This document shows, piece by piece, positions 38,401-56,567 of a stretch of DNA of 64,000 nucleotides. The translations under genes were made by a program, and so were the position numbers. This DNA comes from Candidatus Micrarchaeia archaeon (GTDB taxonomy: Archaea > Micrarchaeota > Micrarchaeia > Burarchaeales > Fermentimicrarchaeaceae): NCBI GenBank assembly GCA_038871515.1, contig JAVZHX010000002.1, positions 141,815-205,814 of the forward strand. The letters are read 5' to 3'. Each line of letters begins with the position of its first letter. The first letter of the stretch is position 1. Below the pieces are notes generated by a model. The model made no database searches and had not been told where the DNA came from. It was given only the letters and a program-made list of their open reading frames with translations.

Positions 38401-40587
38401 ATGCTTGAAAGTATCCTCCAAATCCTCCAAACCACCAGTCCCTTCGTAGTTTAGGTGATCTGAGATTCTCAAATCCGCCTCTGGGTTGTATACGAATTCC
38501 TTAACGCATACTGCAACAGGCGCTTTGTCAAACTGAATGGCACTCATGTTGAAGCATGCCTTGCCGGAATGGTAGCTTTCCAAGCATATGCTGTAGTTCC
38601 CTTTAATTTTACGCGTTGCAGGATCGTAACCTATCAACAAATTTCCGATATCATAGTTGTGCTTCATCACGTAGCTTACCGGCGGGGCAACTGAGGAGTC
38701 AACAATTGTATCAACTGGTGGAGTGAGAGTTGGTGTTGGTGGAATTGTGTAGTTAACACAACCAAGCGGTTTTATCATAACAACTGTGAACTCCTTGGAT
38801 TTCAGGACACTAGTTGATGGGTCAAATGCAGTTATATTGCATTTTACGTTTCCACTGCTGTTTGCGATAATATCTGAAAAAACTGCAACTCCGCGGTTTG
38901 CGATGGGAGTTATATTCAAACTTACATTGCTGGGAATTGTTTTTAGAGGTGGGCAGGTTAGATTAACCTCACCTGCGAAGTCAGTTACTGTGTTATTCGC
39001 AGAGTCCTTCATAGTTGCGATTACTGTGAATGGGATTTCTGTAAACACAGCTGGTGGGTCAACTTCTATGTAAATATCAGCTATCCCAGCGCTGCTCACA
39101 CTCAGAGAAGCAGAGCCCTTTAAAGTGTCTGATGTTGTAACTGATAATCTATAGATGCCGGTGATGTTGAAGAATTTAAGCGAATCAGCAGAAGAAACAG
39201 TATAGGTTCCAACTCCATTTGTCACTGGAACATTTTGTGCTATAGTTTCGGTCGCAAGTTGCACCTCCGGACGCGCTTCTCGTATAATATTGACATTTCC
39301 GTTATAACTTGTATCAACCTGACCGTTTGGAAAGACAGCTTGAATAGTTATGTCAAAGGATTGACCAACCTTTATGCTTGGAGGGGTGATTACAACTACA
39401 AAACTAGTTGCTTTTGGAACTGGAGGGGCAGGGTAGTTAACTGTCACCCGAGTAGAACTATCATCCAAAACGCCAGTCTGAGAGAAGGAGTAATCATCAA
39501 ATTTAGAAGCTGTTTGAATGGTTACCTCCTTCACGAAACTATCCAGCTTGGTATATATATTGCCCTCCGCATAGCCATAAGCTAGAAGATTGAATGTGTA
39601 CTTGCCTCCTTCAGTTCCGTTGAATACGTAGAAGCACATAGAAGCGCTTTCAAAGGTGCATCGCTTCGGATCGTATGAAGCAACCAAACCTGTTGAGTTG
39701 TATATATCCTGGTAGATTCCAACTGCTTTTGAAAACTTTCCGCCTCCGTCATCTTGTGATTTGAACGGCTCGCCGTCATATGAGGAGTCACAGATGTTTC
39801 CGTACTGATCCCTGATTTCTATTGTGATATCAAAATGCTCATTTGGATTTTTTGTCAGAACTGTTGGGGACGTAACAACAATTTGATATGGGTCAGCGTG
39901 GGATACATTGACGCTTGTTGTTATCGTGTTCTGCGTGCTAATTCCGTTTAAGCATTTTGGGGCAACTGCCTTAAGGTTTGAGTAGGTGCCAGGTGAGGTT
40001 GTTATTCCAGAGAAAGTTGTTGAAGCAATCCCACTCCCATCTGAGGTGGGTGTTTGAGTTGCTCCCCATGGAGAGGTTATGCTAACGCTCCTTCCAGATA
40101 CTGCGCTGCCTCCTGAATCTGTGAGCTTCACCGCAACATCCAAATTTCCTCCTGCCTTCTCCTTATAGTAACCATTTTTATAATCAGATGTTGATTCCCA
40201 CGCTATCTTGCAGTAGAGCGGGTTTATGACATAGTTGGTATCGGTAAGCTCCTTATCATCATAGAAACCATGCTCTGCTTTGCAATGCCACGTATGTGTT
40301 CCATCATCATCCACCCCGAAATAATGTGAGTATTGATAATCAGAGCCCGTCCAACCTGCTGGATGCGGAGTTCCATCAATTATAACACTCACAGTAGCCC
40401 CAGTTATATCATTTCCCGAGGAGTTCGTGTAATCGCATTTGAAAGTAACAGTCGTTCCTATATTTCGTGGTGAGCCAGGGCTTGCGGACTGAGTTAGACT
40501 AGACGCTGGGTCAAGCGAAAAAGAGAAGGGAAGGAGGAGTATTAGCGATAGGAAGCAGAGGAATTTTTTAAAGACAACTCTCCCCAT
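32485..40587 (-). CDS. giant (2700 aa) Cys-rich, sequon-rich cell-surface protein with C-terminal TM anchor
   Basis: Signal peptide MGRVVFKKFLCFLSLILLLPFSFS, many beta-rich Ig-like segments and Cys clusters (CIPCTADINCSEGKCIGGFCQSDYLKCG), dozens of N-x-S/T sequons, C-terminal LILIVALLLLMKKRKFNK membrane anchor. Confidence 0.65.
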   Translation of the reverse strand: MGRVVFKKFLCFLSLILLLPFSFSLDPASSLTQSASPGSPRNIGTTVTFKCDYTNSSGNDITGATVSVIIDGTPHPAGWTGSDYQYSHYFGVDDDGTHTWHCKAEHGFYDDKELTDTNYVINPLYCKIAWESTSDYKNGYYKEKAGGNLDVAVKLTDSGGSAVSGRSVSITSPWGATQTPTSDGSGIASTTFSGITTSPGTYSNLKAVAPKCLNGISTQNTITTSVNVSHADPYQIVVTSPTVLTKNPNEHFDITIEIRDQYGNICDSSYDGEPFKSQDDGGGKFSKAVGIYQDIYNSTGLVASYDPKRCTFESASMCFYVFNGTEGGKYTFNLLAYGYAEGNIYTKLDSFVKEVTIQTASKFDDYSFSQTGVLDDSSTRVTVNYPAPPVPKATSFVVVITPPSIKVGQSFDITIQAVFPNGQVDTSYNGNVNIIREARPEVQLATETIAQNVPVTNGVGTYTVSSADSLKFFNITGIYRLSVTTSDTLKGSASLSVSSAGIADIYIEVDPPAVFTEIPFTVIATMKDSANNTVTDFAGEVNLTCPPLKTIPSNVSLNITPIANRGVAVFSDIIANSSGNVKCNITAFDPSTSVLKSKEFTVVMIKPLGCVNYTIPPTPTLTPPVDTIVDSSVAPPVSYVMKHNYDIGNLLIGYDPATRKIKGNYSICLESYHSGKACFNMSAIQFDKAPVAVCVKEFVYNPEADLRISDHLNYEGTGGLEDLEDTFKHPEVLWGWGYYPFSGTSSVCVGSDRYDVQFAPGNVYTDYFNITVTLPLTALEPYNITNDSILNPHELRSPEALLVVDHKDGGRLGKFTLRVPSSWLEDYNGLINGKPIPGATPLIDSNAQAIAYDNRGNIFIALTNSPKVQVVKIVRSYPPTIHFVTEIDTITEDGQYFFPYGLDTDSWGNLYVLGNTYPDTVFNHICINKYDKEFKLNASNNCTEAWEGTARDIAVTEDGASLFVVRDKKRHCEWWGCFWVGYPFIHQYNASNPAQEVSKISIFGGDGGIELQELNPLGVILDPPCTNEAGTKTYVDNVNETQSFWGEEGGYHYLRGIKYRKGYLFVIDYMAFPVRTGYFGCSGFPMECLGCCMPGCLDIFGFKIGCYRNPGTGCTQDGGCLWCPDPNNCNACLWYDTQEYEMTRILAFDTIETPGKQYRAKVVIEPKEYVTLWKAWYDPWGLLSAGLQYVQGKSSETHGIDVDNKFNVYIALKGERNMVVKYKFQPGIQDQSYNFPGGSYSFVYSGSMVESPAVDHPDDVIGYPDLIKESMMAGVSCEGCSQEGAVEPSVCEGEVEKTKTTEYSNIEGLLTSGSIAPGSPVVKLSAPLSPIYRRNFLATNITAFLRFDYTFTIRKYSNGCPSGGSLSGTSVINKQLNITSYSNHLERLVEGGGSHFSLTRPAYLTPPKKTPSTLPYLAYNYLTNRFFYKHFVMMDRVSNYMAPPDDHQWILNASYRKTFNIMQNQYYGYQYISTTPTVDQYGHQNPLYIFEYPTTNMFGNDPNKNPYVLTVVEGGVVKNKTIPFNNTMNWSYPFAYVFSPVHKEPNPLPFAPQDPPPDGASDYYYQAITNVSSLLVSILCETSARVNVTYSITVTNSSYTPFGYCYIIHAISITGAPEEASLFIMPANLSTDNGICFEDIFGRNSSMCHNTRAWFKKSIPPNTVVSQTGYDEYIDSPTRYPLLGEPYAPFPSSLLIKPVKISGPTLLAIHGFNASRRIDIPPENDNESKISGAADFMGKDLPNPLPFRGITSTSLYLRSDGNGTFRIFSWPPMDWSIISYQTSDGWVSAAPHAASETDVLLVEVWGGCENGCLIQFSKDPFGSSIIGELFLWKGQYAYYDVNTYTAVPSFTYMPPRGMVQVVPDDPRNRNFMFISSVSGKGYLGDQFEVYTDPDVILRVDNFTVGSCIPCTADINCSEGKCIGGFCQSDYLKCGVGMHPSGPPCAPSFVCPRIDVSLFNESIEVASTRDHDSNNKTRITIVGTDTSGNYNLINGSVELSSYSSMDYLGLGGPYSAVYIIEVKDGIKGETLIFRTATTKNELARISLPSSNYTAYSSIATILPNPRRLRINSNMISVDRTIGYTIKGTRNNNVIVEESSVGTPALTCALPSPAVVQPDSVLLGCGFQFDPITSPQTAGVPFQVRIRTVPLGTTYPVINAESSGCLNPSRSDAPPTNMLGTPDGKTACFWESSSYGGFVPGIFGTFGRSLSVKEFRFNITCSKDYTEIELYVSNATDCWEKILPPYKDNSSYVFYARTAPGSGPLHEISLSNGTVDAVCFWFKDITDETKPPWNEQYHYGCSVDALGIYPPGNICQFNGNATLSDTGGAYTRNNICPRQIGPFYNGVWSGYVMLGEGITNEMLKAENDVTVGFSNSFNVTTSTGVSLVSFETNETFTHVLSIEIEGNEGEHFNVTTAPLYLDGLSTAVTPEQIGVINVVPNDFVLGFYQNKSGTFIYSQQDSVVLNIPDNDSLGLHNFHYRFFDRFNNTFIVPYTIWLRQPTAIIMQVQTVRDPQNINRTIVYVTAQLLYQRWDKPEEKPNTPLPGQVMELYVQNSSRTLYGDGSQLDPVNCNPAVSGVCPIAPEESNCSCPDWIDEPGGTGDCLPNPVCHQYGILSHLETGNPYFITNATGHVNTTFKIYGFGRRLLFGVFWGTDIYAPSIEIKPFYAGGVSVAIGSFPVLEPLILIVALLLLMKKRKFNK

Positions 40588-40643
40588 TCCACCACGTCTT
40601 ACATTTTTATTATATTATAATATGGATTAATTAATAACTTTTG

Positions 40644-43064
40644 TTATCTCCCGAGCATCACCCCAAAGTTTCCAGGGTGCACGGGCGTTATTCTCCCATT
40701 GCTTATCTCGGATTTTACTATAACCGCAAGGGAACTGTATGACAGCTCAAGCTTTTTAAGAACTTCCTCCATCTCTCTTCTATTTTCAAATACAATGAAA
40801 TTCTTGCCTAAGTCAATAAGCGCAAGTGCTCTCTTAAATGCGCTTTCATCCGTGTATATATGAATGTATATCCCTTCTCCTTTCACAGTTGCGAGCATAT
40901 CGCAGTCCTTCCTGCTGTTCAGATCAGTGAATGGAATTGCATTGTTCACAAAGAAGCTCCTTAGTAACCTGAAAAGCGCAAGGTATTTCATGCTTCTCCC
41001 GCTCTTTTCCTCCCATAGTTTTAAACCATATAGGTTAACTGCTTTCACAACATCCCCGCTTTCAATCAGCTCATTCAGAATTTTTTCTAAGTTGTAGTCA
41101 GTTATCATTATTGGAACTCCTTTATGAGTTATCTTTCTCCTCATCTCATTCTTCAGCTCCTGTGCGCTCAGAGGCATAAAACTCCATTTGTATTCTCTGT
41201 TGACAGAATCAAACAAGCTGAGCAGGGAGAATTTGGAAAGCGGAATCACAACTTTCTCCATAGGTGGAAAATCGGGCACATCAATTGTGTATACTGGTTT
41301 TTCAGGTCTTCTGAGCGCAACTGCCGCCCCTCCCACCACAAGAGTTAAAACTACAATTGCCACGTTAATTGGGTTGTCAAACCAGCCGGGTGGTTTTGCT
41401 CTTTTCACATTCACCGAAATTAACTCACCACCAACATTGAACTTGAATGTGTATTCCCCAAATCCCAAGTATATATCTGGGCGCGAGTAGTTGAAGTTCC
41501 CTTCTGAGTCTGTTGTTGATGGAAGTGGCTCTCTGAATAAATCCTTTCCAGGTGTGTTGTTCACAGTTATCAAAATTAATCTGTTTTTTAACGGCTCGGC
41601 TATCTCTTCCCCAAAACGATTATCTGGGGGCAGAACTGCTCTGAAAGTTATGAACTGTGGCTCATCCCAAAACTGCAAGGTGGGGGTGATGAGAATTTGG
41701 GGCACAATGAGCAGGGATTGGGCGTATACGTAACCATCATCGTCCTCTGCCCTCAGTATATAAACTCCTCTCTCAAAATCAACCACAAAATTGCTTGAGA
41801 AGGAATACTCGCCCTGTATGAGCCTTATTCCTCTCTGTGCAAGTTGCTTGCCAACAAGCTGCATATCCTCATCATACACCGCAACGCTTATGTTTATGTC
41901 TTTTGGTTGCGAGAAGTTTGCGAGGAGTTTGAAGTCTATCGTGAAGTCCGCCTCTCCCCTTGCAACCTTTGATTTGTGGAGCATGTTGCCAGAGACAGTT
42001 TTTGTTATTCTTCGCTCAACGACGGAGTGGAAAGGAAGGTTGTTTGTTGTGTTTGTTGTCAGGTATATTCTAGCCCATCCTTCGGGGTAGCTGGAGGGAA
42101 GGAAGAAAATCATTGTTTTATTCGAGTTTGATTCATTGATTTTTGATGATGGAACCAGGAGAGTGGCGGTTGTGAGTGGAGATTGCCATTCAACCTCGTA
42201 TATTGCTCTCGCCACATCCTCGCCTGCCTGAGTTCCATTGTAGCTCCAACCAATGTCAATGCTGCGTGGGAATGCCAGCAGATAACCATTCTCATTTTTC
42301 ACAACGGACAAAGAACCGCTAACAATGGTTTCTGAGATGCTGAAAGCTGGTTTTTTCAGCCTGTATGGTGGTTTTGTTAACAAATCCGTTCTTGGCTTGT
42401 AGTTTATACCGTACTGGCGAAGCTGCGATGGCGAAACTGGCTGAACCGAACCATCTTTATTAAGCGATGAGGAGAGCTCACTTCCAATGAATATAACAAC
42501 AAACCCCTTTTTCATAAGTGCGCCCAAATCAGTTCCACTTTCAACTCCGACAAGCTGACTTGGTATTTTGCCTGTTGGAACAATGAGTATCGAGGGGCGG
42601 GTGAGAGCGTCAAGCTGGTATAGTTTAATCTGATTCAGAGTTGATTCAGGTTCTATTAAACCATACTGTTTCAAATTTTTCTCCAGTGAGTCTTTGAAAT
42701 CGCTCAATCCATCGCACTCAACACAACCGCGGAAATCACCTGAGGAATAGTCAAGCAGGTATATGTCTTTTGGCACCTGATCCGCAAGAAGCTCTGCTCT
42801 TATTTCTACATTTCGTATATCTTTTCCATTAAGCTGGGAGAGGATGTAAACAATGCTTTTCTGCTCTATTCTGGAACCACCGGGAGTTGCTTTTACAGCT
42901 CCGTAATCCAAAACGCCGGAATCAAAGATTATGAGTTCCATTTGGGGGGTGACATTGAGGGGAGGGGGGCGGTAAGGCGGAAGCATTAACAGAACGAAAT
43001 AGAGAGCAACCACCCCTATAATTAGAAGTATGAGCAACAGCAGTAGAATCTTTTTCTTGTTCAT
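40644..43064 (-). CDS. bitopic/tritopic membrane protein (806 aa) with large extracytoplasmic and C-terminal cytoplasmic domains
   Basis: N-terminal TM (ILLLLLILLIIGVVALYFVLLML), about 540-aa outside domain, second TM (VAIVVLTLVVGGAAVAL), about 210-aa C-terminal domain. Confidence 0.55.
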   Translation of the reverse strand: MNKKKILLLLLILLIIGVVALYFVLLMLPPYRPPPLNVTPQMELIIFDSGVLDYGAVKATPGGSRIEQKSIVYILSQLNGKDIRNVEIRAELLADQVPKDIYLLDYSSGDFRGCVECDGLSDFKDSLEKNLKQYGLIEPESTLNQIKLYQLDALTRPSILIVPTGKIPSQLVGVESGTDLGALMKKGFVVIFIGSELSSSLNKDGSVQPVSPSQLRQYGINYKPRTDLLTKPPYRLKKPAFSISETIVSGSLSVVKNENGYLLAFPRSIDIGWSYNGTQAGEDVARAIYEVEWQSPLTTATLLVPSSKINESNSNKTMIFFLPSSYPEGWARIYLTTNTTNNLPFHSVVERRITKTVSGNMLHKSKVARGEADFTIDFKLLANFSQPKDINISVAVYDEDMQLVGKQLAQRGIRLIQGEYSFSSNFVVDFERGVYILRAEDDDGYVYAQSLLIVPQILITPTLQFWDEPQFITFRAVLPPDNRFGEEIAEPLKNRLILITVNNTPGKDLFREPLPSTTDSEGNFNYSRPDIYLGFGEYTFKFNVGGELISVNVKRAKPPGWFDNPINVAIVVLTLVVGGAAVALRRPEKPVYTIDVPDFPPMEKVVIPLSKFSLLSLFDSVNREYKWSFMPLSAQELKNEMRRKITHKGVPIMITDYNLEKILNELIESGDVVKAVNLYGLKLWEEKSGRSMKYLALFRLLRSFFVNNAIPFTDLNSRKDCDMLATVKGEGIYIHIYTDESAFKRALALIDLGKNFIVFENRREMEEVLKKLELSYSSLAVIVKSEISNGRITPVHPGNFGVMLGR

Positions 43065-43255
43065 TTAGCACCCTCTACTTTTAATCCAAATTTCTGCAGC
43101 AAGGATATCACTTTCTTCCTGAACTCACTTTCCTCTTCCTTGTATTTTTTCACAATTCTGAAACGCTTTATGTTCTGAAACCTCTTTCTGGTGCGCAGCA
43201 GATACGTCTCCTTTTTAACTTGAGACTCCAGTATGCTTGGGGTTTCCTCCATCAC
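43061..43255 (-). CDS. small basic protein (64 aa)
   Basis: Short ORF with stop/start overlaps to both neighbours in the array. Confidence 0.3.
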   Translation of the reverse strand: MMEETPSILESQVKKETYLLRTRKRFQNIKRFRIVKKYKEEESEFRKKVISLLQKFGLKVEGAK

Positions 43256-43256
43256 T

Positions 43257-44060
43257 TCACCCTATAGCCTCAAGATACCCCTGCATAACCATTGAGTTGA
43301 GCAGGTGCTCCACTCTTGATTCTAATACGTTATATGTTTTGGCAAACTCGCTTATGTTTATCTCGTTATGATGGAGCTCAAGCCACTCCTGTATTTTCAC
43401 CTTCAGCACATCATCAGAGGGAGATTCAACCTGCTTCAACCTGAGAGTGAGCTCATCGTTCTTTGCTTTTAATTCAATTGCCTCGTTTGTCATCTTTGTG
43501 ATTGCTGCGTTGAGAGCTTCCACCTTCTTCTGCAAGGAGAGGAATTCGTTATTGAGTATGTCGTATTTTGAGAATATTTCATCATACGTTGATGCAGCAA
43601 ATTCAGTTATCTCTGTTAGCGCATTGCGCAGTATTTGGTAGAACTGCTTGTGATTCGTTTCATATTCATCTTCTATAAGAGTCATAACATTTAGGAAGTG
43701 CTTCAGCACATCTATCTTCCTTTTTCTTATGCTTATGCCAGGAACAACTGAGTAAACAACCTCAATCTCATTCGGGCGCAGGTAGATTAGTGAAAAGAGG
43801 TAGGGGTTCTTTTTTATATCCCTGCTCTCAACATTCAGCGCAGCAACGTAGTCTGATTCAACAGTTAGCATAAGGGAGCTTATTGATGAGAGGGATTCGG
43901 CAAGCTTTCTTAAATCGCCTTTTCTACTTGCAGGTAATTTGAAGCCGTAGATTTGAGGCGCGGGAGTTTCATCCTTAACCTCCTTCTTCTGCTCCTTTTT
44001 TTCAACTGGTTTTTCAGGTTTCTTTTCCATGTTTCTCAACCTTTGGGTAATATGATACAA
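43257..44060 (-). CDS. hypothetical protein with Lys/Glu-rich N-terminus and coiled coil
   Basis: 267-aa ORF (possible start at internal MEKKPEKP about 44030). Co-directional in array. Confidence 0.45.
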   Translation of the reverse strand: MYHITQRLRNMEKKPEKPVEKKEQKKEVKDETPAPQIYGFKLPASRKGDLRKLAESLSSISSLMLTVESDYVAALNVESRDIKKNPYLFSLIYLRPNEIEVVYSVVPGISIRKRKIDVLKHFLNVMTLIEDEYETNHKQFYQILRNALTEITEFAASTYDEIFSKYDILNNEFLSLQKKVEALNAAITKMTNEAIELKAKNDELTLRLKQVESPSDDVLKVKIQEWLELHHNEINISEFAKTYNVLESRVEHLLNSMVMQGYLEAIG

Positions 44061-44367
44061 GAGCGAGTAGCATGAATACCACTCCCATCACAATAGCGAG
44101 GAGTAATGATTGAATTGAGAAGGAAATGAGGAGGAGTAGCACTGCCATAAGAACTGCAAGCACTCCCCACGTCATAGCAGTTCTCTCAAACCTCCTTCTC
44201 TTCTCCTCAGCTTTTGGCAGACACTCCTTACAGACAACTAGAGTGTTTCCTGTGGAAGCGTGAAGTTTTTCCTTAATTTTTCTTATCGTATCTATAACTG
44301 GGTCATCCTCAACCCTCAATCCTTTCTTCTCCTTCTGGCATACAATGCAGACTGTTTTTCTTTTCAT
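44014..44367 (-). CDS. zinc-ribbon (CxxC...CxxC) protein with two C-terminal TM helices
   Basis: CIVCQKEKKG...CKEC followed by hydrophobic VLAVLMAVLLLLISFSIQSLLLAIVMGVVFMLLALV. Confidence 0.4.
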   Translation of the reverse strand: MKRKTVCIVCQKEKKGLRVEDDPVIDTIRKIKEKLHASTGNTLVVCKECLPKAEEKRRRFERTAMTWGVLAVLMAVLLLLISFSIQSLLLAIVMGVVFMLLALVSYYPKVEKHGKET

Positions 44368-44369
44368 AT

Positions 44370-44669
44370 CTATCCCTTCAGAACAACCTCCTGAATCTTC
44401 TTATCATCCAACCCCACTTTCTTCGCATCTGCTTTTGAGAAAATTGTTATGAGGGTTGTCTTCTCCACCCCAATATCCTCAAGAAAGTTTGAAATCTGAG
44501 TTCTGCTTGCCCCAAACCTCTCAAGCGTGATAACAAATGTGACAACATCCATTCGCTTATTTCTCTTGTCAAACATGCTCATAACTTCCTCAAGGTGGGC
44601 ATCGCTTAAACCAAATAGCTTCAGCCGCTTTCTCAGCTCGCTTTTATCAAACGTGTATGCCTTCGCCAT
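44370..44669 (-). CDS. small protein paralogous to the C-terminal domain of the adjacent ATPase
   Basis: YTFDKSELRKRLKLFGLSDAHLEEVMSMFDKRNKRMDVVTFVITLERFGASRTQISNFLEDIGVEKTTLITIFSKAD aligns colinearly with the last about 85 aa of the upstream ATPase (YSFEKNELKNKLTEFGMDDIKASELINIFSKGNKHMDILEFVKFLDKNDLARSNITSFLKVIGMEDAMIIDIFNRID). Confidence 0.5.
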   Translation of the reverse strand: MAKAYTFDKSELRKRLKLFGLSDAHLEEVMSMFDKRNKRMDVVTFVITLERFGASRTQISNFLEDIGVEKTTLITIFSKADAKKVGLDDKKIQEVVLKG

Positions 44670-47600
44670 CTACCCACCGGAATCTATTCTGTTGAATATA
44701 TCAATTATCATCGCATCCTCCATACCAATCACTTTAAGAAAAGAGGTTATATTTGATCTGGCCAAATCGTTTTTATCAAGAAACTTCACAAACTCAAGTA
44801 TATCCATATGTTTATTTCCTTTGCTGAAAATGTTTATCAATTCAGAAGCTTTTATGTCATCCATTCCAAACTCAGTTAACTTATTCTTCAGCTCATTCTT
44901 CTCAAATGAGTAATTCTTTGGAATTGTTTCATCCGCAAGCTGCGCCTGAGTTAGGATTGATTCAACGTCAAGGAAGTATTCCTCAAGAGGCTCCTCTCCA
45001 TGAACTCTCTCAAGCAGAAAAGTTTCAGGGAACTTTGTGCTTGTCTGGAATGCCATGTTAACCGCGCACTGCCCAACTCCAAACTTGCTTATCTCCTCCC
45101 TCATGTAATCACTGAAGTTCAACGAACCCTGTATGTAATCTAAGAATTTCTGGAATTTCACTCTGAGGATGAAGTTTGTTCCAACGTTTGAGAAGATTGC
45201 TTCGTGTATGTCTGTTGGGTTCTGCGAGGCGACTATGAGACCGAAGTTGTATTTTCTACCCTCTCTCACAATCATGATTGCATCAGACCTTTCATCCTTC
45301 GCAATCTTCCACGCCTCATCAAGAACAACAAGCACTCTCAAACCCTTTGTTGCAGCCCATCCGGCAGCCCTCATTTTTTCTTTTAGGAATTGGAGGATGA
45401 ACAAGCCGGCAAGCCCTCTCATTACCTCGTCAGGCAAACCGCTCATATCAACGTCAACCAGCCCAACTTCAGTAAGCTCCTCAAGCTTCACAGTGCTCTG
45501 CTGCGCGAAGTAATCCTCACCTGGCCTGCAGAAGTTTCTTAATCTGTAGATTGCATTCTCAAGCTCCGCAGGAAACTCATATGTTCCTGATTTAAGCTTA
45601 TCTTCAAGTATTTTCACAACATCTTTTAAAGTTGGTGGGGTGAGTGGTTTACCATCTGCTCCTTTCTGCTCAACTTCATTCAATTTGAAACCAGCTTCCT
45701 TATACGTTTCCTCAAGCGCTTCCTCGGTAAGCCTCTTCTGCTCCGGGTATTGCCCAATATCTGTAAGTATCTCCAACGTTCGTATAATTTGCTTAACCCT
45801 GTCAAGTGGTTTCATTCCTCCCAAATCCATTAAATTGATGAAATCCCCTTTTCCCAGTGCAATTATCCTTCCTCCTGCCTGCTTAACCCATGCCCTGTAT
45901 TCGCCTGCCCAGTCAATTATTATCGCGTTGCTCCCCCAAACGAAAGCAGCGCGTGAGAGGAAAGTTTTGACGAAGTAGGAGTTATGCACAAATACTCCGC
46001 CAAAGCCTGCAAGGAAAACTTCCTCATCAACCTCCAAATCATAAACGTAAGGTGAGTTGCTGTTTATTTTCTCTATGTTGCTTATTCTATCCCAAACTAT
46101 ATCCGAGTTGGAAAGTAGTTTCAGAAATTCAACATCATCCCAAATTGTTGGCTCAGATTCATCTAATGAAAGTTGATGGGATAACTGCGGTGCGTAACCT
46201 GCAAAATTGCTTTCAACCTCATTGAGCATACCCGCGAGGTATTCTCTTGAAGGAGTTCTGAGCCCAGCAGCTATTGAATAAGTCATCTGAGTTCGTCTTA
46301 ACACTCCGTTTTTGACAAGTCTATTCACTACTGAGCCTATCTCTGGGATGAGGTCAACATTGCTGTGTGCTTTTGTTTTTGCAAGCAGTTTCGCAAGCTT
46401 TTCGTTTTTTGTTTTAAATGCAAAACCTATCTCCGCAAATTTCTCCAAGTTTTTCTTTCCAGAAATGGTAATTCTGTAGTAATAAGAGCCTGAATGGGAT
46501 GAGTTGGTGGCACGTTTCCAATGAGAGTGAACACGGGCATTCACTCCAAATTTTAGGAGTAGGTAGAGTAGATCATTGGCGAGTTCCCTGGATTTTGTGG
46601 TTGCGCAGACAGCGTGATGCTCCACGCTTCCATCTCCTTCGAAATAACCTCTTAGATACTCGGATATAATTTTTCTTGAGCAGGAGAATATGAAGGAGGG
46701 AACTGCTCTCTCCCCAGATTTTTTGTGCAGCAGAAGAGATTTGATGAGCTGTATGAATGGCTCTGAAGCAATTCTTACTCCTTTTCTAACTCTAAAGGAA
46801 CTGCTTCCAACAGAACTAGCACACCTCTCTACTTCTGCAAGAAATTCCTTGTTGCAGTTGCTCACATGGATGAAGTCCTTTGCTGTGTTTCCCTCAGCAG
46901 TTATGAAGCCAAGCAACCTTGCCAGTTCTGGCGTTATTGGGAGTATTGCTGGCAAGTTTATTCTTCCGTTGCGTGCCCGTATTCTAAGTTTTTTCATCTC
47001 CTCCTTCTCCAGCGGGGAGGTTCTGAGCAGCTTTCTGAAGTAGCGAAGCGGAACTGCTCTCCCATGCTTGTAGAAGCGTATGTATTTATCATACTGCTCG
47101 TCTATTGGTAGGTTGGATTCTATTTTCTCCCAACTAAATCTCACAAAGTTCAACCCCGTTACATACAGCTTGCTTTCACCAAGCAAATCCAGGAGGTTTA
47201 GCTCATCAAGGTTTGAATTGGAGTTTATTGAACGAGGTGTTGGGACGAAATCGCCTGGCTGAACTTCACTGCTTTTCACGACTCTGATGTATCCATCCCT
47301 GAAAACAACTATATTGTGATCGCCAGTTGTCTTAACCTCCCTCCCACTGCTTGTTGTGAATTTATACATCTGCTCGGGAGCTTCCTTCCTGGCAGCAGTG
47401 ACAACCCTGCTCCATTTTGCTTTTAGTGTGCTGTCAAAAGTATAAACTTCAACATTTGGGTTTCTCACGCAGGTGCAACCATCAATTTCCTCCGCCCCCT
47501 CTTGCTCAATCAATGAGTCCACAAGCTCCCCTATTCTGACAAGCTTTTCATTTCCATCAACTCTCACCAGAACTTTTTCATCTGGTGATATCGACTTGCC

Positions 47601-47813
47601 CGCGCCGGTTATCCCAACTATGCAGATATGTGGGTTTGTTAAATACTGATAGGACCAGTTAAAAGGAACGTGAAATATTTTTGTTTTTCCAATGTAGATT
47701 GAGTTGGATGGGTCAAGCGCGATGAACTCTGCTGGCGGTTCAGGAGGCCTTACAAACAACGGCCTCTTTGCAAGCTCCTTGCTCATTATGGATTGAACGC
47801 GTATTTTTCCCAT
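44670..47813 (-). CDS. VirB4/TraC/CedB-like P-loop ATPase interrupted by an intein
   Basis: Extein: Walker A CIVGITGAGK|S split by the intein. After splicing SYFVKTFLSRAAFVWGSNAIIIDWAGEYRAWVKQAGGRII (cf. iDpkGEY...gG motif of VirB4/TraG ATPases). Walker B LRVLVVLDEAWKI (DEAW is the VirB4-type Walker B). Confidence 0.75.
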   Translation of the reverse strand: MGKIRVQSIMSKELAKRPLFVRPPEPPAEFIALDPSNSIYIGKTKIFHVPFNWSYQYLTNPHICIVGITGAGKSISPDEKVLVRVDGNEKLVRIGELVDSLIEQEGAEEIDGCTCVRNPNVEVYTFDSTLKAKWSRVVTAARKEAPEQMYKFTTSSGREVKTTGDHNIVVFRDGYIRVVKSSEVQPGDFVPTPRSINSNSNLDELNLLDLLGESKLYVTGLNFVRFSWEKIESNLPIDEQYDKYIRFYKHGRAVPLRYFRKLLRTSPLEKEEMKKLRIRARNGRINLPAILPITPELARLLGFITAEGNTAKDFIHVSNCNKEFLAEVERCASSVGSSSFRVRKGVRIASEPFIQLIKSLLLHKKSGERAVPSFIFSCSRKIISEYLRGYFEGDGSVEHHAVCATTKSRELANDLLYLLLKFGVNARVHSHWKRATNSSHSGSYYYRITISGKKNLEKFAEIGFAFKTKNEKLAKLLAKTKAHSNVDLIPEIGSVVNRLVKNGVLRRTQMTYSIAAGLRTPSREYLAGMLNEVESNFAGYAPQLSHQLSLDESEPTIWDDVEFLKLLSNSDIVWDRISNIEKINSNSPYVYDLEVDEEVFLAGFGGVFVHNSYFVKTFLSRAAFVWGSNAIIIDWAGEYRAWVKQAGGRIIALGKGDFINLMDLGGMKPLDRVKQIIRTLEILTDIGQYPEQKRLTEEALEETYKEAGFKLNEVEQKGADGKPLTPPTLKDVVKILEDKLKSGTYEFPAELENAIYRLRNFCRPGEDYFAQQSTVKLEELTEVGLVDVDMSGLPDEVMRGLAGLFILQFLKEKMRAAGWAATKGLRVLVVLDEAWKIAKDERSDAIMIVREGRKYNFGLIVASQNPTDIHEAIFSNVGTNFILRVKFQKFLDYIQGSLNFSDYMREEISKFGVGQCAVNMAFQTSTKFPETFLLERVHGEEPLEEYFLDVESILTQAQLADETIPKNYSFEKNELKNKLTEFGMDDIKASELINIFSKGNKHMDILEFVKFLDKNDLARSNITSFLKVIGMEDAMIIDIFNRIDSGG
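45981..47594 (-). other. intein (about 538 aa) with LAGLIDADG homing-endonuclease domain inserted in the ATPase P-loop
   Basis: Block A S-ISPDEKVLVRVDGNEKLVRIGELVD right after GAGK. Block B VKTTGDHNIVV (TxxH). Two LAGLIDADG-type motifs LLGFITAEGNT and YLRGYFEGDGSV. Blocks F/G VYDLEVDEEVFLAGFGGVFVHN followed by +1 Ser that completes the Walker A (GAGK-S). Confidence 0.7.
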
Positions 47814-47822
47814 AAATATAAA

Positions 47823-48662
47823 TTATATTGCTCCCTTTAAATCTTTAGGTGTTGGCGGGAATGCAACCTCCCATTCAAAGCATCTTTTCATATCCTCTCC
47901 TGTGAGAGTTGTTATCTCTATATTCAGCGTGTTTGAGAAGTTCGCTTTGAGTTCATTTGCCTGTGCTTTTACAGTTGCTATTGCAGCTTCTGGGCTTACA
48001 CCAAGCGCGGTGGTTGTTATGTACATAATTGTTCCCATAGGCTTCTCTCCGGATGATAATCTGGCGAGCATCTCGTTCTGCCTTGCAACTTCCCTCTCCC
48101 ATTTGTCTATCATTATTGGGTCAGGGCGCGGTTTCTCCCTCTCCCTCCCGAGCCTCAGCTGTGCTGCAGCTCTTTTTGTTTCAATATCCTCCCTGAATTT
48201 AAGAATGTCTTCTATGTATGTCATTATGCAAAACTTAAATGGGAATTTTATGCTTGCAACTGCCCTCTCCCATAGATCCATATAGGAAGCCTGCTCCTCC
48301 TGAACGCCAACAGCTGCGGATTCATAGAACCTGGCGTAGAGGAACATTGTTGCGTAATACAAACCACCAACGTTTTTTATAATCACATCCTGCGAAGGAG
48401 GTATTTCAAACCCACCTGCACGTATTTCGGTTACCTTTAAAATTTTTGTTATTAACGGTAGAACCATAAAGCCAACTTTGTAGATTAAAACATCCAGCAC
48501 TGCGAAGAATATGCTGGCAAGCACTGCGATAATTCTGAAATCGCCTAAACCAGGTGAGGTTAAGCCAATCATCAAACATAGGAAGCAGATTCCGAGCGCT
48601 AGAGCTGTGAAAGTCTTTTCGTTCATTCCTATTGGGATTCCTCCAACTGGCATTTCAATCAC
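47823..48662 (-). CDS. membrane protein, family B (2 TM + soluble domain), paralog 1
   Basis: Two N-terminal TM helices then conserved domain (MFLYARFYES...MDLWERAV...TGEDMKRCFEWEV). Clear paralog of the next gene. Confidence 0.5.
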   Translation of the reverse strand: MIEMPVGGIPIGMNEKTFTALALGICFLCLMIGLTSPGLGDFRIIAVLASIFFAVLDVLIYKVGFMVLPLITKILKVTEIRAGGFEIPPSQDVIIKNVGGLYYATMFLYARFYESAAVGVQEEQASYMDLWERAVASIKFPFKFCIMTYIEDILKFREDIETKRAAAQLRLGREREKPRPDPIMIDKWEREVARQNEMLARLSSGEKPMGTIMYITTTALGVSPEAAIATVKAQANELKANFSNTLNIEITTLTGEDMKRCFEWEVAFPPTPKDLKGAI

Positions 48663-49630
48663 ACCGATGGAGCTTCCTCCCTTATTAGGGGTGGCGCCAC
48701 ATACTCAACCTCAAAACATCTCTTCATATCCTCTCCAGTAAGAACTGCAACCTCGGCGTTTAGCGTTGTTGCAATTGTTGATTTTATCTCGTTTGCCTGG
48801 TTCTTCACAGTTGCAAGTGCCATTTCTGGTGTAGGGCCGGAAGCAGTTGTCATAACATACGTCATCTGCGCGATTGGGTTTTCCCCTGTTGATAGTTTTG
48901 AGAGCAAGTTATCCCACATCGCAACTTCTCTCTCAAGCGTTTCAATTTTCTGCTTATCTTCCTGGGGCTTTCCTCTCTCATCTGCAAGCTTCAGCTGAGC
49001 CTCTGCTTTTTTGTTCTCAACTATCGCTCTGTATTTTGATAAATCCTTAACATAGGAGATTAAAACGAATTTTGTAACCAGCTTCATGCTTGAAACTGCT
49101 CTCTCCCAAAGCTCCATAAAAGCAAACTTCTCCTCCTCACTTTTCTCTGTTGTTGATTCGTATATTTTAACTTGCAGAAACATGGATGCATAATACGTGT
49201 TGCCAATTTTTTTGATAACTGCGTCCTGTGTTGGTGTTATCTCATATGGCTCCTCAATTACATCTATCACCCTAACCTTTTTTGTTAAGAGAGGAACAAT
49301 CCAGTAACCATATTTGAATGTTATAAGCCCAACTGTTGATAGGGCAGCTGCAAGCGCTACAACAATTGGGGTGAGCCCACCGAATAAAGCACCACCTACA
49401 AATACTAGCACTACTAATGCTCCTGAAACGGCAAAGCAGATTAGTGCGATGTTTCTCTCAGCTGGCATAACACCACTTACAGAAGCCTTACTATTCCCTG
49501 CCCTATCTCGGTTATGTCTGCACCGAGTAATGGGGAGATTGTTCTTATAAATGTGAATGTCACAATGAGAACGAGCATTGGGTAATAGAATATTTTTAAC
49601 CAGACAGAGGATAACCAGCCCAGTATCCAT
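48659..49630 (-). CDS. membrane protein, family B, paralog 2
   Basis: Shares MFLQVKIYES...MELWERAV...TGEDMKRCFEVEY with the previous gene. Probable start at MPAERN (about 49468) directly after the upstream stop. Confidence 0.5.
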   Translation of the reverse strand: MDTGLVILCLVKNILLPNARSHCDIHIYKNNLPITRCRHNRDRAGNSKASVSGVMPAERNIALICFAVSGALVVLVFVGGALFGGLTPIVVALAAALSTVGLITFKYGYWIVPLLTKKVRVIDVIEEPYEITPTQDAVIKKIGNTYYASMFLQVKIYESTTEKSEEEKFAFMELWERAVSSMKLVTKFVLISYVKDLSKYRAIVENKKAEAQLKLADERGKPQEDKQKIETLEREVAMWDNLLSKLSTGENPIAQMTYVMTTASGPTPEMALATVKNQANEIKSTIATTLNAEVAVLTGEDMKRCFEVEYVAPPLIREEAPSV

Positions 49631-50481
49631 GCAGAAGCAGCTCTCAGCTGGGGTGAGAGAGCTCTTTCGGTTGCAACATCAGATGCGCTTTCAAAATCGC
49701 TTTTGCATGCGCCAAACTCATCAAGATTGAACCCACCAATGCTGTTTCCAAGTTCATTTGCTTTATTTCTAACTTCAGATGGGTTTTCTGACATCATGGC
49801 AACAAACGTGAACATAATTGGATAGACGATTGACAACCCTATTCCAATTGCAATGAGCAAACCACCTGCACCTCTTGTCCATGGGAATATTCTCAATAAT
49901 ACTCCTGCGGGTATGAAAACTGTGAAGCCGGTGTTGTAGAAAAGGTGTATGAGAGCTCTCTGAAAAGCTGTGAGGATGGCTGCCATAGTCACAACATACG
50001 CTTGGAAGTGGAAGTGCTCGCTTACTGGTGATAGAATTAGCTCGAAGGGAGAGAAGTCTAACCCAGCTGCATTGAAGTAAAATGTGAATGTTGTGAGAAA
50101 CTCTATGATGAAGTTTATTCTGTAAACGTTGATATATATTGAATAAAGCGAGCTCATAACCCCGTCTAAGTAAACATATGCTTTTTTGTACGGGTTCATC
50201 CCACCGATCATTGTCTGAAATCCTTCGTTCAGCATGACATCCATCATAAAGATTAAACCACCAACAATCACTGCGCTTGCCAGCGCTTGATAAAATTCTG
50301 ATTTTGCCCATTTTCTCAATCCATCCAAATTCAGGGCAATGCCAAGCATATAAGCTAATGCGACAACAAGGAAAGCGGTTACAACTGCAGTTAATGCAAC
50401 TGGCTGCCAAACATTCCAAACTCCTTCAACTGCAACTGGAGTTGCACCCCAGGGTTCCGTCCACCAAATTATCTGCATCAT
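49477..50481 (-). CDS. polytopic membrane protein, family A paralog (334 aa)
   Basis: N-terminal LAYMLG...WAKSEFYQALASA motif. Core LLRIFPWTRGAGGLLIAIGIGLSIVYP. C-terminal GADITEIGQGIVRLL. Confidence 0.55.
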   Translation of the reverse strand: MMQIIWWTEPWGATPVAVEGVWNVWQPVALTAVVTAFLVVALAYMLGIALNLDGLRKWAKSEFYQALASAVIVGGLIFMMDVMLNEGFQTMIGGMNPYKKAYVYLDGVMSSLYSIYINVYRINFIIEFLTTFTFYFNAAGLDFSPFELILSPVSEHFHFQAYVVTMAAILTAFQRALIHLFYNTGFTVFIPAGVLLRIFPWTRGAGGLLIAIGIGLSIVYPIMFTFVAMMSENPSEVRNKANELGNSIGGFNLDEFGACKSDFESASDVATERALSPQLRAASAWILGWLSSVWLKIFYYPMLVLIVTFTFIRTISPLLGADITEIGQGIVRLL

Positions 50482-50489
50482 TTTTTCAC

Positions 50490-51521
50490 CTATATCAATC
50501 TTGTGAGGTTGCTCACATCTACCTCCTCACCCAACGCATACGAAAGTCCTTTCACAAAAGATATTAAGATCATGAACATAACAAGTGGCATAAAGATTGC
50601 ACCAACAATTGTTTTTCCTATGAAGCCAACGAAGAACTCGGAAAGGGGATTACCTGTGAACCAGCTTGGGTCGGTTGGACTGAGACCTGATTCCTTGAAT
50701 GAGTCTGACATACCTTCATAGCTCATCTGCACATCTCCGAGCACTGCGCCGTAGAAGAGAACTGCAAGAAGAGGGTAAAAGAAAAAGAAGCCAATTGCTA
50801 ATGCTATCAAACCTCCTCCAAACCCTCTTGTTGCACCAAAAGATCTTAGAAGAACACCTATTGGGAAGAGGATGACGAATAAGCTTTCCATCATTTTCAG
50901 CAGAACCATCTGGGTTAGCACCATTATTGCTGATGTCATGAGAACAATCATTGCCATGGTGAGGCTGCTTGATATGTCGCTGAAAACCGCCAGCGGGCTG
51001 ATCATCACGCCGACTCCTCCAGGTGCTTTTCCAATCGTCATTGTTGCAACGGACGACATAACTGCATTCAACCCAGCTACTGTCACGTAGCCAGTCATTA
51101 TTGTTGAGTAGAAGTCACTCAAATAACCGAATGCAACGTTTATCATGTTGCAGTTATCCCCTGTACAGCCCGTGTCTATCCCCAAAGTGTTCAAATCAAG
51201 CGAGCAGAGGAAGGAAACAAACCCAATTACAAAAATAGTTATTGCCATAGCGAGTATTGCCTCCTCCATCTGCTCCTTTGCCCACAGCGTAACTTTTCGG
51301 TGAACAAGCACGTGCCCCAACGTATAAACAAACGCTGCAACTAGGAAAACAGTTGAGGCAGCAAGGATGGATAAACTCTGCCAATTCCCCCAGTAGGTTT
51401 CGAACTCGGAGCTCACTGCTCCTGAACTGCATGCTGGCTTTACTGTTAATGTCCCTCCAGTAGCGGTACAGCCAAACCACATCAGCGAGAGCAGTAACAA
51501 ACCAATTATGTATTTTTTCAT
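50490..51521 (-). CDS. polytopic membrane protein, family A paralog (343 aa) with signal peptide
   Basis: WAKEQMEEA, LLRSFGATRGFGGGLIALAIGFFFFYP, C-terminal EEVDVSNLTRLI. Confidence 0.55.
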   Translation of the reverse strand: MKKYIIGLLLLSLMWFGCTATGGTLTVKPACSSGAVSSEFETYWGNWQSLSILAASTVFLVAAFVYTLGHVLVHRKVTLWAKEQMEEAILAMAITIFVIGFVSFLCSLDLNTLGIDTGCTGDNCNMINVAFGYLSDFYSTIMTGYVTVAGLNAVMSSVATMTIGKAPGGVGVMISPLAVFSDISSSLTMAMIVLMTSAIMVLTQMVLLKMMESLFVILFPIGVLLRSFGATRGFGGGLIALAIGFFFFYPLLAVLFYGAVLGDVQMSYEGMSDSFKESGLSPTDPSWFTGNPLSEFFVGFIGKTIVGAIFMPLVMFMILISFVKGLSYALGEEVDVSNLTRLI

Positions 51522-52450
51522 ATCAACCCACTCAGTCCACCTAAATCTATTTCGGCACCGAATATTTTTGCAAGCTCATTTATCAACACCAATGTGACTA
51601 TGAGGTTGAACATTGGCATGAATATAACAAATATGAATAAATAAAGAATTGCTGGATAGGCAACAAACTTTATAAGAGAGAGGAACATATTCCCACCAAA
51701 GTCAGGTGTGTTTGTTGTGCAGCTCATAGGATCATCACGACAGCTGCTTCCCAACCCAAGCGCATTGGCGAAGTTACGAGCACCTCCGACAAGTGCCAAT
51801 GGTTTTATTGTTTCGTCGTATATTGCCTTGTCAAACACCCAGAGGAAGGGATAGAAAATGTAGAAACCAAGGAAAACTGCTATGATTGCGCCTCCTGCAG
51901 GTCTGCTGAATGGAAATGCTCTGAGTGCTATTCCTATTGGAAGGAGGATTTGGAACTGTGTTTTTATGAATGTGAGAAAGGAACCCTGGCCGAGCAGAAG
52001 CCCAATCCCACCGAGCACTGCTTCCATTCCAAGCGACAGCATTGAGGTGACTGGAGCCAAACCAACAAATGGGTTTATGTTGAAACCTGTTTGAGTGGGC
52101 ATTGCTTTGAAGACAAGACTCTGTAGCATCCCAAAAAATGCATCCATCTCAACAATTGCAATGAAGAAACTCATCATCGAAGTGGTGAGCATGCTTATGT
52201 AATTTGATACAATTCCAAATGGATCCGCTCCATATAGACTTACCATAGTAGCGTCAATTGTTGATATAAAGGAGAGAAGCAGAACTGCAAGCAAACCACT
52301 GGCTATTGCTTGGTAAAGCTCATCCTTTGCCCAAGCCTGAAGCTTTGGCAGATGGAAGCCCATCCCAACCATATAAGCAAGCGCAACAAAACCAAACATC
52401 AGTGAGATAACCGCAAAGGTTATTCCATACCATTCAGCCCAGCTTACCAT
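51518..52450 (-). CDS. polytopic membrane protein, family A paralog (310 aa)
   Basis: WAKDELYQAIASG, ALRAFPFSRPAGGAIIAVFLGFYIFYP, C-terminal GAEIDLGGLSGLI. Confidence 0.55.
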   Translation of the reverse strand: MVSWAEWYGITFAVISLMFGFVALAYMVGMGFHLPKLQAWAKDELYQAIASGLLAVLLLSFISTIDATMVSLYGADPFGIVSNYISMLTTSMMSFFIAIVEMDAFFGMLQSLVFKAMPTQTGFNINPFVGLAPVTSMLSLGMEAVLGGIGLLLGQGSFLTFIKTQFQILLPIGIALRAFPFSRPAGGAIIAVFLGFYIFYPFLWVFDKAIYDETIKPLALVGGARNFANALGLGSSCRDDPMSCTTNTPDFGGNMFLSLIKFVAYPAILYLFIFVIFMPMFNLIVTLVLINELAKIFGAEIDLGGLSGLI

Positions 52451-52458
52451 TTTTTCAC

Positions 52459-55526: not shown

Positions 55527-56503
55527 ACCAATCTAGCCAGCCCAAACAAATCCGGATCCCCTCCAAGCGCACCTGCAAGGGAACGGATTGATGATAGAGT
55601 GATTATAACAACTATCACGAATAATGCTGAGATTATCACAAAGTTTTGCATGAGCGCAGTTATTAGATTGATTATAGAGGTAATATCCCAAGAGACAGCT
55701 CCAAAAGTTGCGTTTCCTGCGAAATCAAATACGTTGCCCGGGTCTCCCGGTGCAGTAACTGCTCTGTAGCCTAAGTAAACATTCCAGCTATAGATTATTG
55801 CAAGTGGGTATATAATGTAAGCACCAATTGCAATTGCAATTATTGTCCCACCAGCAACTCTTGTTGTTGGGAATGTTCTCATCAAAACTCCAAGAGGAAG
55901 GAAATACTTCAGCATTGTGTATCTGAAGAAATCAAGAAGCACCTGCTCTGCTAGAAGCACAGCAAGCATTGCGGATATAACATTGAAAACAGTGTTTATT
56001 CCAGTTGTCACTGGTCCAAGCCCAGCCCAAGGTGAAACAAACGAGCCGAAGCGAATGGTAACGATTGTTGGGAGAGGAGGCGGTAGAATTGGTATCGGGA
56101 TGAAAAAACTGAACATAAGAGTTGAAATGGCGCTTATTAGGAAGTTTGCAAGGAAAATTGAGAGCCATATGCTCATTGTCTCAAGCAGCATCATATCGAG
56201 AGCATTATGCGCCACCTCAAATGGGTTGCCTCCCGCCAGGTTTATTGAAATTCCAAAAAGAATGTTAACAAGTAGGATAAGAACACCGACAATCACTCCA
56301 CTTATGAATATCTCATACATCTCCGTCTTCGCCCACTCCTCAAGCTCCCTGTAGTGAAACCCAATTGCAACAGCATAAGCTAAACCAATTATTCCAAAAG
56401 AAACAGCCAATGCAGTTAAAGCAGTTGTCTCCCACCCACCTAGGAATATGCCACCGCTTAACTGTGCTTGAGTTATCTGAAGAATTGCCAAAGGGAGAGG
56501 CAT
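55523..56503 (-). CDS. polytopic membrane protein, family A paralog (326 aa)
   Basis: WAKTEMYEIFISG, VLMRTFPTTRVAGGTIIAIAIGAYIIYP, C-terminal GGDPDLFGLARLV. Confidence 0.55.
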   Translation of the reverse strand: MPLPLAILQITQAQLSGGIFLGGWETTALTALAVSFGIIGLAYAVAIGFHYRELEEWAKTEMYEIFISGVIVGVLILLVNILFGISINLAGGNPFEVAHNALDMMLLETMSIWLSIFLANFLISAISTLMFSFFIPIPILPPPLPTIVTIRFGSFVSPWAGLGPVTTGINTVFNVISAMLAVLLAEQVLLDFFRYTMLKYFLPLGVLMRTFPTTRVAGGTIIAIAIGAYIIYPLAIIYSWNVYLGYRAVTAPGDPGNVFDFAGNATFGAVSWDITSIINLITALMQNFVIISALFVIVVIITLSSIRSLAGALGGDPDLFGLARLV

Positions 56504-56567
56504 ATTATCTATTTTGTGATCTGGTTGTTTTTAAAACTAACTGAAAGTTGAAAAAAGAAAAAGGAGT

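Follow-up and report, generated by a model that had tools for sequence, protein, structure and literature searches.

The window analysed here, a stretch of 64,000 nucleotides (nt) from a Candidatus Micrarchaeia archaeon, carries on its minus strand a gene for a 1047-amino-acid (aa) protein that is annotated at NCBI, on a 272-kb contig, as a "LAGLIDADG family homing endonuclease" of a Candidatus Micrarchaeia archaeon. The gene codes for an ATPase resembling the C-terminal domain (CTD) of VirB4 and belongs to a long operon on the same strand. An in-frame insertion in the gene separates Lys73 from the Ser that completes Walker A, GITGAGK^S (the caret marks the insertion point here and below). The interrupting element is very probably a canonical class-1 intein with a nested double-motif LAGLIDADG homing endonuclease, hosted by the VirB4-CTD-like ATPase of a conserved chromosomal operon, similar to type IV secretion systems (T4SS) and Ced systems, in an archaeon of the Micrarchaeia (DPANN). 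The coordinates of the intein, of its host gene and of the neighbouring open reading frames (ORFs) are given in Table 1.

Table 1. Features of the intein-containing ATPase gene and of its surroundings (window positions; intein residues are numbered from its Ser1).
Feature	Coordinates	Strand	Basis or remark
Precursor gene, 1047-aa intein-containing VirB4-CTD-like ATPase, 118.5 kDa	44670..47813	-	ORF list; identical to NCBI MEM3555916.1
N-extein, aa 1-73, ending in the first part of Walker A, GITGAGK (47595..47615)	47595..47813	-	
Intein, 538 aa, 60.8 kDa, 1614 nt, precursor residues 74-611; HINT splicing domain split by double-motif LAGLIDADG homing endonuclease	45981..47594	-	Pfam; NCBIfam; PI-PkoII (2cw7); exact 1614-nt gap in L001/L002
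Block A, SISPDEKVLVRVD, Ser1 as N-terminal nucleophile	47556..47594	-	
Block B, GREVKTTGDHNIVV, T90-x-x-H93 (TGDH)	47304..47345	-	T90 and H93 invariant in alignment A1
LAGLIDADG motif 1 (block C), LARLLGFITAEGN, catalytic-position Glu234	46887..46925	-	Pfam LAGLIDADG_3; G229, E234, G235 invariant
LAGLIDADG motif 2 (block E), ISEYLRGYFEGDGSV, catalytic-position Asp321	46623..46667	-	Pfam LAGLIDADG_3, second stretch; G320, D321, G322 invariant
Block F, PYVYDLEVDEEVFLA, V517-Y518-D519 invariant	46008..46052	-	Aligns to the PI-PkoII C-splice region
Block G, GFGGVFVHN, penultimate His537, terminal Asn538	45981..46007	-	TIGR01443 intein_Cterm above cut-off
+1 Ser codon TCC, C-extein nucleophile; Ser of GAGKS once ligated	45978..45980	-	
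C-extein, aa 612-1047 and stop codon; remainder of the RecA-like ATPase core	44670..45980	-	
Walker B, LRVLVVLDEAW, in C-extein	45309..45341	-	
C-terminal ~85-aa helical domain of the ATPase, in C-extein	44679..44918	-	
99-aa ORF directly downstream of the ATPase	44370..44669	-	Paralogue of the ATPase C-terminal helical domain
Operon, ~30 kb	27100..57312	-	
Tandem small membrane proteins	56568..56987; 56962..57312	-	Upstream of the ATPase; paralogous
Six polytopic membrane proteins in tandem	49477..56503	-	27-33% identical to the first (49477..50481)
Two membrane-anchored proteins directly upstream of the ATPase	47823..48662; 48659..49630	-	Paralogous
Giant ORF, 2700 aa	32485..40587	-	Operon distal end
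Giant ORF, 1787 aa	27100..32463	-	Operon distal end
Second DUF87 ATPase, 409 aa, intein-free	24918..26147	+	Divergent at the operon end
TnpB-like ORF	22975..24027	+	Near the operon end

The precursor reads HICIVGITGAGK^SISPDEKVLV at the N-terminal junction (longer flank NPHICIVGITGAGK^SISPDEKVLV) and GFGGVFVHN^SYFVKTF at the C-terminal junction (longer flank FLAGFGGVFVHN^SYFVKTFLSR). The one-codon ambiguity created by the Ser found at both ends is resolved because the chemistry requires Asn as the last intein residue and a nucleophile right after it, and also because related UvrB inteins read GK^S...HN^T. Removal in silico of precursor residues 74-611 yields an extein of 509 aa in which Walker A, GITGAGKS, is uninterrupted. 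An earlier note on this DNA had placed a full-length LAGLIDADG intein exactly in the Walker A motif, read the P-loop as GITGAGK and Ser on its two sides, and named a Ser start, block A, block B with TGDH, two LAGLIDADG motifs, a VHN end and a +1 Ser. Every one of these elements was located, and motifs, profiles and empty sites bear out the placement to the base.

The match of this segment to intein families is far above chance. Pfam Intein_splicing (PF14890) has an E-value of 1.7e-20 and spans residues 86-611, while LAGLIDADG_3 (PF14528) matches in two stretches (E=8.7e-24). In NCBIfam the intein_Nterm model TIGR01445 scores 55 bits (cut-off 24.5) and intein_Cterm TIGR01443 17.0 bits (cut-off 15.6), next to strong partial matches of the window protein to models of intein-containing RpoA'', Tes, IF-2, PolII and RFC. 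The alignment to intein profiles proposed in the note thus found splicing, N-terminal and C-terminal models all matched, with blocks F and G and the HN followed by Ser present. Ser1, like T90 and H93, is invariant in alignment A1, and both LAGLIDADG helices end in an invariant acidic residue (LLGFITAE234G and YFEGD321G).

Alleles devoid of the insertion are common. A search with the spliced extein gave 1170 homologues, and the best 120 of these, all cluster representatives, are 424-568 aa long (the shortest, of 424 aa, is a fragment) and are therefore all intein-free. They include P0001 (514 aa), which is 98% identical to the extein, and the F. limneticum orthologue (512 aa, 92% identical). 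DNA alignment of the window gene with the empty alleles L001 and L002 displays one clean gap of 1614 nt, positioned at Walker A, so that the empty site expected by the note in related genomes was found. The sites of the empty alleles around GGCAAG^TCATAYTTCGT are almost identical to the flanks of the window intein. Residues G67, G70, G72, K73 and S74 are invariant in 46 orthologues; the insertion site is therefore essential and the unspliced precursor carries a disrupted, essential P-loop. From the established biochemistry of Walker A we infer that the host ATPase needs splicing to function, as the note had also stated.

The spliced extein scores higher against ATPase families than the precursor does, an outcome of the splicing and renewed search that the note had suggested. 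Its Pfam matches are DUF87/HerA-central, AAA_10 and the TraG P-loop. The best NCBIfam matches are CedD (1e-19, 70.6 bits for a cut-off of 600) and CedB (5e-18, 65 bits for 700), with HerA at 56.5 bits (cut-off 800) and the VirB4-type models NF045971, TIGR00929 and TIGR02746 at 56, 27.5 and 42.5 bits (cut-offs 325, 643 and 567, respectively). The PADLOC defence ATPases mad8, HerA and DndH match as weakly as these NCBIfam models. The top PDB folds matching the AlphaFold (AF2) model of the extein (predicted local distance difference test (pLDDT) 74, predicted template-modelling score (pTM) 0.67) are those of the Thermoanaerobacter VirB4 CTD (4ag5/4ag6; target-normalised template-modelling (TM) score 0.70-0.73, 20-23% identity), with DndH-C and HerA close behind, and phmmer aligns the extein to 4ag5 over residues 59-332 (2e-9). 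The host has the VirB4 C-terminal RecA-like ATPase domain with Walker A and B. Only ~60 residues, which have no Pfam match, precede Walker A, compared to ~260-280 in the true VirB4 hosts P0126, P0127 and P0134; the VirB4 N-terminal domain (CagE_TrbE_VirB, membrane/VirB3-interacting) is therefore absent. The designation "VirB4-like" used in the note is consequently fair for the ATPase domain, by its fold match to 4ag5/4ag6, and for the genomic context, by the VirB2-like pilins of the operon; it does not extend to the N-terminal domain, and the protein belongs to no curated VirB4, HerA or Ced family since all thresholds were failed. The ORF directly downstream, a paralogue of the C-terminal helical domain of the ATPase (38% identity, E=4e-21), and that domain itself are both conserved in F. 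limneticum and have no Pfam match.

The operon is fully syntenic with the 1.18-Mb chromosome of Candidatus Fermentimicrarchaeum limneticum, and the ATPase is its most conserved member in this comparison (92% versus 60-84% for its neighbours). A class II aminoacyl-tRNA synthetase (Asp/Lys/Asn type by Pfam) and a radical-SAM/TRAM gene follow past the operon. Location of the host gene on a plasmid, a virus or an integrated element was ruled out by the operon-wide chromosomal synteny, by these flanking genes and by more than 1000 homologues of which the organism-named ones among the best 120 are all from Micrarchaeota-lineage archaea. The host is a conserved chromosomal core gene of Micrarchaeia and is not mobile. 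The note had taken the endonuclease as a mark of horizontal mobility of the gene; as the latter is chromosomal, syntenic and the best conserved of its operon, the mobile part is the intein and not the gene. A foreign composition of the intein was also ruled out: its G+C content (0.432) equals that of the extein and its codon usage is within the range of the neighbouring genes.

Relatives of the intein were collected by a full HMMER scan of 1.84 billion cluster representatives, which gave 5279 proteins at E<=0.001. The closest ones are 36-44% identical, have the same GK^S..HN^SYxVK site and are found in VirB4/TraC of Patescibacteria and in other Micrarchaeia. Junction analysis placed the intein at the same position in 11 of the 14 best relatives (GxGK^S(C)...HN^S(Y/F)xVK). 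This site is shared by hosts of two kinds. The first are bona fide VirB4/TraC proteins (371 and 382 bits for P0127 and P0134, above the NF045971 cut-off of 325), which originate, where the source is named, from Patescibacteria (Parcubacteria, Gottesmanbacteria, Uhrbacteria, Woesebacteria and "Patescibacteria group"). The second kind comprises orthologues of the window ATPase from Micrarchaeia, P0128 and P0121/P0301. Neighbour-joining unites all VirB4-site inteins in a single clade (200/200 bootstraps) that excludes the VirB11-type and UvrB P-loop inteins; within it, Micrarchaeia group with P0126, to which no taxon is assigned (160/200), and Patescibacteria group together (115/200). VirB4-site inteins of other lineages (P0126, P0127, P0128) are mostly 614-673 aa long, with ~80-135 extra residues after the endonuclease core. 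P0121 (843 aa), which represents its cluster in the database, ends in an Arg-rich stretch that is apparently frameshifted; its cluster mate P0301 (1011 aa) is intact.

A word-indexed protein search gave only five relatives because cluster representatives hide occupied alleles. These alleles were found only by listing cluster members, and counts from representatives alone are biased. In clusters of 90% identity the intein is present in one of five members of the window cluster, one of eight of the F. limneticum cluster (P0304), one of eight of the P0003 cluster (P0312), one of three of the P0006 cluster (P0318) and five of the 16 members of the P0128 cluster. Several occupied alleles are named "intein/homing endonuclease" by JGI. 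Presence and absence of the intein is thus polymorphic among close relatives. The inteins of P0304, P0312 and P0318 (whose DNA alleles are L004-L006) are 70% identical to the one of the window for exteins that are 89-92% identical.

The ratios of nonsynonymous to synonymous substitution rates (dN/dS, Nei-Gojobori method) in these alleles are 0.03-0.04 for the extein, 0.07-0.13 for the whole intein, 0.04-0.11 for the splicing domains and 0.06-0.11 for the endonuclease core (0.06-0.08 in comparisons including the window allele). The endonuclease is therefore maintained by selection. The stretch after the endonuclease core, equivalent to window positions 46140..46394, is the fastest-evolving part in the window clade (0.15-0.30). 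Divergence at four-fold degenerate sites among L004, L005 and L006 is 0.34-0.43 in the intein versus 0.59-0.65 in the extein (z=3.2-5.9), and the step in silent-site divergence coincides with the intein borders. A less silently diverged intein than host gene argues for horizontal movement of the intein after divergence of the hosts, which appears to have occurred among these sister alleles and is apparent among them only.

These observations fit the homing cycle expected from established intein chemistry. The 118.5-kDa precursor, its P-loop being split, would be unable to bind ATP. An N-O acyl shift at Ser1 would produce an ester that is attacked by the +1 Ser (transesterification); cyclisation of Asn538, helped by His537 and block F, would then release the 60.8-kDa intein, and an O-N shift would restore the peptide bond, leaving a 57.7-kDa ATPase with an intact GITGAGKS whose predicted ligated-extein junction peptide is GITGAGKSYFVK. 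The free intein-endonuclease, with Glu234 and Asp321 at the ends of its two LAGLIDADG helices, is expected to cut intein-free alleles at the site GGCAAG^TC(N)TAYTTCGT, and repair of the cut allele from an occupied one would copy the intein into it (homing). The intein would thus be a selfish passenger, kept since its invariant site tolerates no imprecise deletion and by repeated re-invasion of empty alleles in Micrarchaeia populations.

Several points weigh against this proposal. Splicing and cleavage by the window intein are deduced from its sequence. Purifying selection on the endonuclease domain could equally reflect a structural need for splicing or a role beneficial to the host. The silent sites of the window allele are saturated relative to all its relatives, in intein and extein alike, and therefore permit no statement on recent mobility of the window copy. 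Exact 8-mer scans of the GTDB species genomes and of JGI metagenome contigs retrieved no near-identical copy of the intein, its closest relatives being 70% identical.

The last two points are also those that favour the alternative that survives best, although we hold it to be unlikely: that of a resident intein with a dead or dying endonuclease, which still splices but has lost homing, passes on by vertical inheritance alone and survives as its imprecise deletion would destroy Walker A. Besides the lack of a close copy in the collections scanned, the window intein branches outside the group of the three 70%-identical alleles (200/200 bootstraps), its silent divergence from them equals that of the exteins, which gives no sign of a recent transfer of this copy, and the closest host relative of the window allele, L001 (proportion of nonsynonymous differences, pN, 0.013), is intein-free. 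However, both LAGLIDADG motifs are intact with E234 and D321 invariant, the endonuclease core is under a constraint as strong as that of the splicing domains, and silent divergence in the sister alleles is lower in the intein than in the extein.

A domesticated intein whose conditional splicing (redox, temperature, substrate or a partner) acts as a post-translational on-switch of the T4SS-like ATPase, kept for the benefit of the host, appears very improbable. The P-loop position makes activity strictly dependent on splicing, purifying selection covers the whole intein, VirB4 ATPases from two domains of life carry an intein at this site, and selective retention of P-loop inteins was argued in general by Novikova et al. 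2016 (PMC4760082). But most alleles are empty, even inside the 90% clusters, when fixation is what one would expect of a beneficial switch; the intact homing endonuclease and the lower silent divergence of the intein fit selfish mobility; and Ser1 and the +1 Ser, instead of a Cys1/Cys+1 pair, provide no obvious redox handle. Finally, that the segment is no intein at all, being an integral lineage-specific domain, an insertion that is not spliced or a free-standing homing-endonuclease gene left in frame within the protein, has a practically negligible likelihood: beyond splicing being known by deduction no support was found for it, precisely these 1614 nt are missing from the 98% and 92% identical orthologues, whose GAGKS is contiguous, the segment has the full set of HINT blocks (A, B, F and G) together with Ser1, TxxH and HN followed by Ser, and an unspliced insert would split an invariant P-loop.

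The selfish intein favoured here has its closest sequence relatives outside its own lineage in the VirB4/TraC Walker A inteins of Patescibacteria (P0127, of a Parcubacteria "TraC" cluster; P0134; P0129 and P0139 of Gottesmanbacteria; P0132 of Uhrbacteria), at 32-36% identity by BLASTP and 39% for P0127 and P0129 by phmmer. They share the insertion point (GxGK^S...HN^S(Y/F)xVK), a Ser1 (rarely Cys1), the double LAGLIDADG motif and the HN followed by Ser, but most are longer (529-673 aa). They reside in full-length VirB4 proteins of the monoderm type, which have the N-terminal domain and pass NF045971 (371-382 bits), whereas the window host is archaeal, lacks that domain and scores 56 bits. The closest solved structure by sequence is that of PI-PkoII, intein 2 of the Thermococcus kodakarensis DNA polymerase (PDB 2cw7, E=1.3e-30), which has 537 aa and also starts with Ser-Ile and ends with His-Asn; its N-splice, LAGLIDADG endonuclease and C-splice regions follow one another as in the window intein. 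It differs by its host, a family B DNA polymerase, and by its insertion site; three stretches, covering these regions, align while the middle and post-endonuclease regions do not. The clade next nearest in the tree is that of the VirB11/KlbA-type P-loop inteins, which archaeal secretion ATPases carry likewise between the Lys and the Ser/Thr of Walker A (GGTASGK^S...HN^TTTLNAL in P0133, P0161, P0167 and P0170); these hosts are of the VirB11/GspE superfamily instead of HerA/VirB4. Mja KlbA (2jmz, a chain of 186 aa, E=1.3e-7) is a mini-intein without endonuclease. The note regarded P-loop inteins as normally restricted to replication and repair ATPases, a view that does not hold since other hosts are not unusual: five bacterial VirB4 inteins (Firmicutes, Proteobacteria) and 21 archaeal VirB11 inteins were catalogued by Novikova et al. 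2016 (PMC4760082, Table 3).

The remainder of the operon looks like a chromosomal T4SS/Ced-like apparatus, with VirB2/TrbC-like pilins, the VirB4-CTD-like ATPase, many polytopic membrane proteins and two giant proteins. The Ced/Ted DNA-import systems of Crenarchaeota (CedB/TedB, CedA1/TedC, CedA/TedA) are a chromosomal archaeal T4SS derivative that combines a VirB4/HerA-like ATPase, VirB2-like pilins and polytopic membrane proteins (Beltran et al. 2023, PMC9905601). The window system is alike in the best NCBIfam matches of its extein (CedD and CedB) and in its pilins, but differs in the scores of these matches (70 and 65 bits for cut-offs of 600 and 700) and in having no significant VirB6/CedA-like fold match for the polytopic paralogue modelled. 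No intein was seen in a Ced/Ted ATPase, and the literature library searched gave no description of a T4SS-like operon in Micrarchaeota.

The first of the two small membrane proteins upstream of the ATPase corresponds to QXF56_04375 (113 aa in the NCBI call). Members of their family match Pfam T4SS_pilin in 25 of 31 cases and TrbC/VirB2 in 19 of 31 (best E about 1e-8), and the family profile had no significant match among PDB sequences. The six polytopic paralogues have in common the motifs WAKDExYQ and GVLLRxFPFTRxAGGxLIAIAIGLYIxYP, and the one at 53631..55526 has a long extracellular N-terminal extension. An AF2 model of a polytopic paralogue (pLDDT 66) had no significant match among PDB folds, R388 VirB6 being found at rank 22 (E=5.5). 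The two membrane-anchored proteins are about 40-45% identical across genomes; the second one (323 aa, overlapping the next gene) is probably ~55 residues too long at its start because its F. limneticum orthologue has 268 aa. The two giant ORFs have no significant Pfam match and recall the giant proteins found beside VirB4/TraG-like ATPases in nanohaloarchaea (PMC10266531). The second DUF87 ATPase has its best matches to the DndH C-domain (PADLOC, 5e-25) and CedD (2e-13). The TnpB-like ORF, with a Cas12f1-like TNB domain (E=3.8e-22), suggests an IS200/IS605-type element near the operon end. Scans of the window for tRNAs and Rfam families gave no matches, and a scan for bacterial promoters and terminators, which carries no meaning for an archaeon, gave nothing notable.

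The current understanding of inteins is unchanged: the element is real and well preserved, but selfish elements of this kind are known and this one is unexceptional, VirB4 and VirB11 P-loop inteins being already catalogued. What is mildly new is the finding of one intein lineage at the same Walker A site in VirB4 of Patescibacteria and in VirB4-like ATPases of Micrarchaeia, with a good series of occupied and empty alleles; the literature library searched gave no mention of inteins in VirB4 ATPases of Patescibacteria or DPANN, and a paper on the Patescibacteria T4SS does not mention them (PMC12102498). As a P-loop intein of a mesophilic DPANN archaeon with Ser1 and a +1 Ser, the element is a candidate addition to protein-engineering toolkits. 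To intein biology it contributes a host from the archaea and well-sampled alleles: four with inteins 70-86% identical, two allele families at greater distance and numerous empty sites. As Patescibacteria VirB4 has the same site, this allele set could be used for studies of the homing cycle and of cross-domain spread in uncultivated populations. For Micrarchaeia, the NCBI label of a homing endonuclease hides the motor ATPase of a conserved T4SS/Ced-like operon, and removal of the intein in silico gives back a 509-aa protein suitable for comparison across DPANN. A tentative extension, to which we give a low probability, is that the window intein is a branch of a VirB4-specific lineage that crossed between two radiations of ultra-small symbionts, the Patescibacteria and the DPANN Micrarchaeia, by recognising the near-identical DNA coding for GxGK^SYxVK; lying in the motor gene of the DNA-transfer apparatus, it would obtain through the activity of this host machine the cell-to-cell DNA contact needed for homing. 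If true, this would be a self-reinforcing link of a selfish element with a conjugation-like system and would provide a marker of inter-domain DNA traffic.

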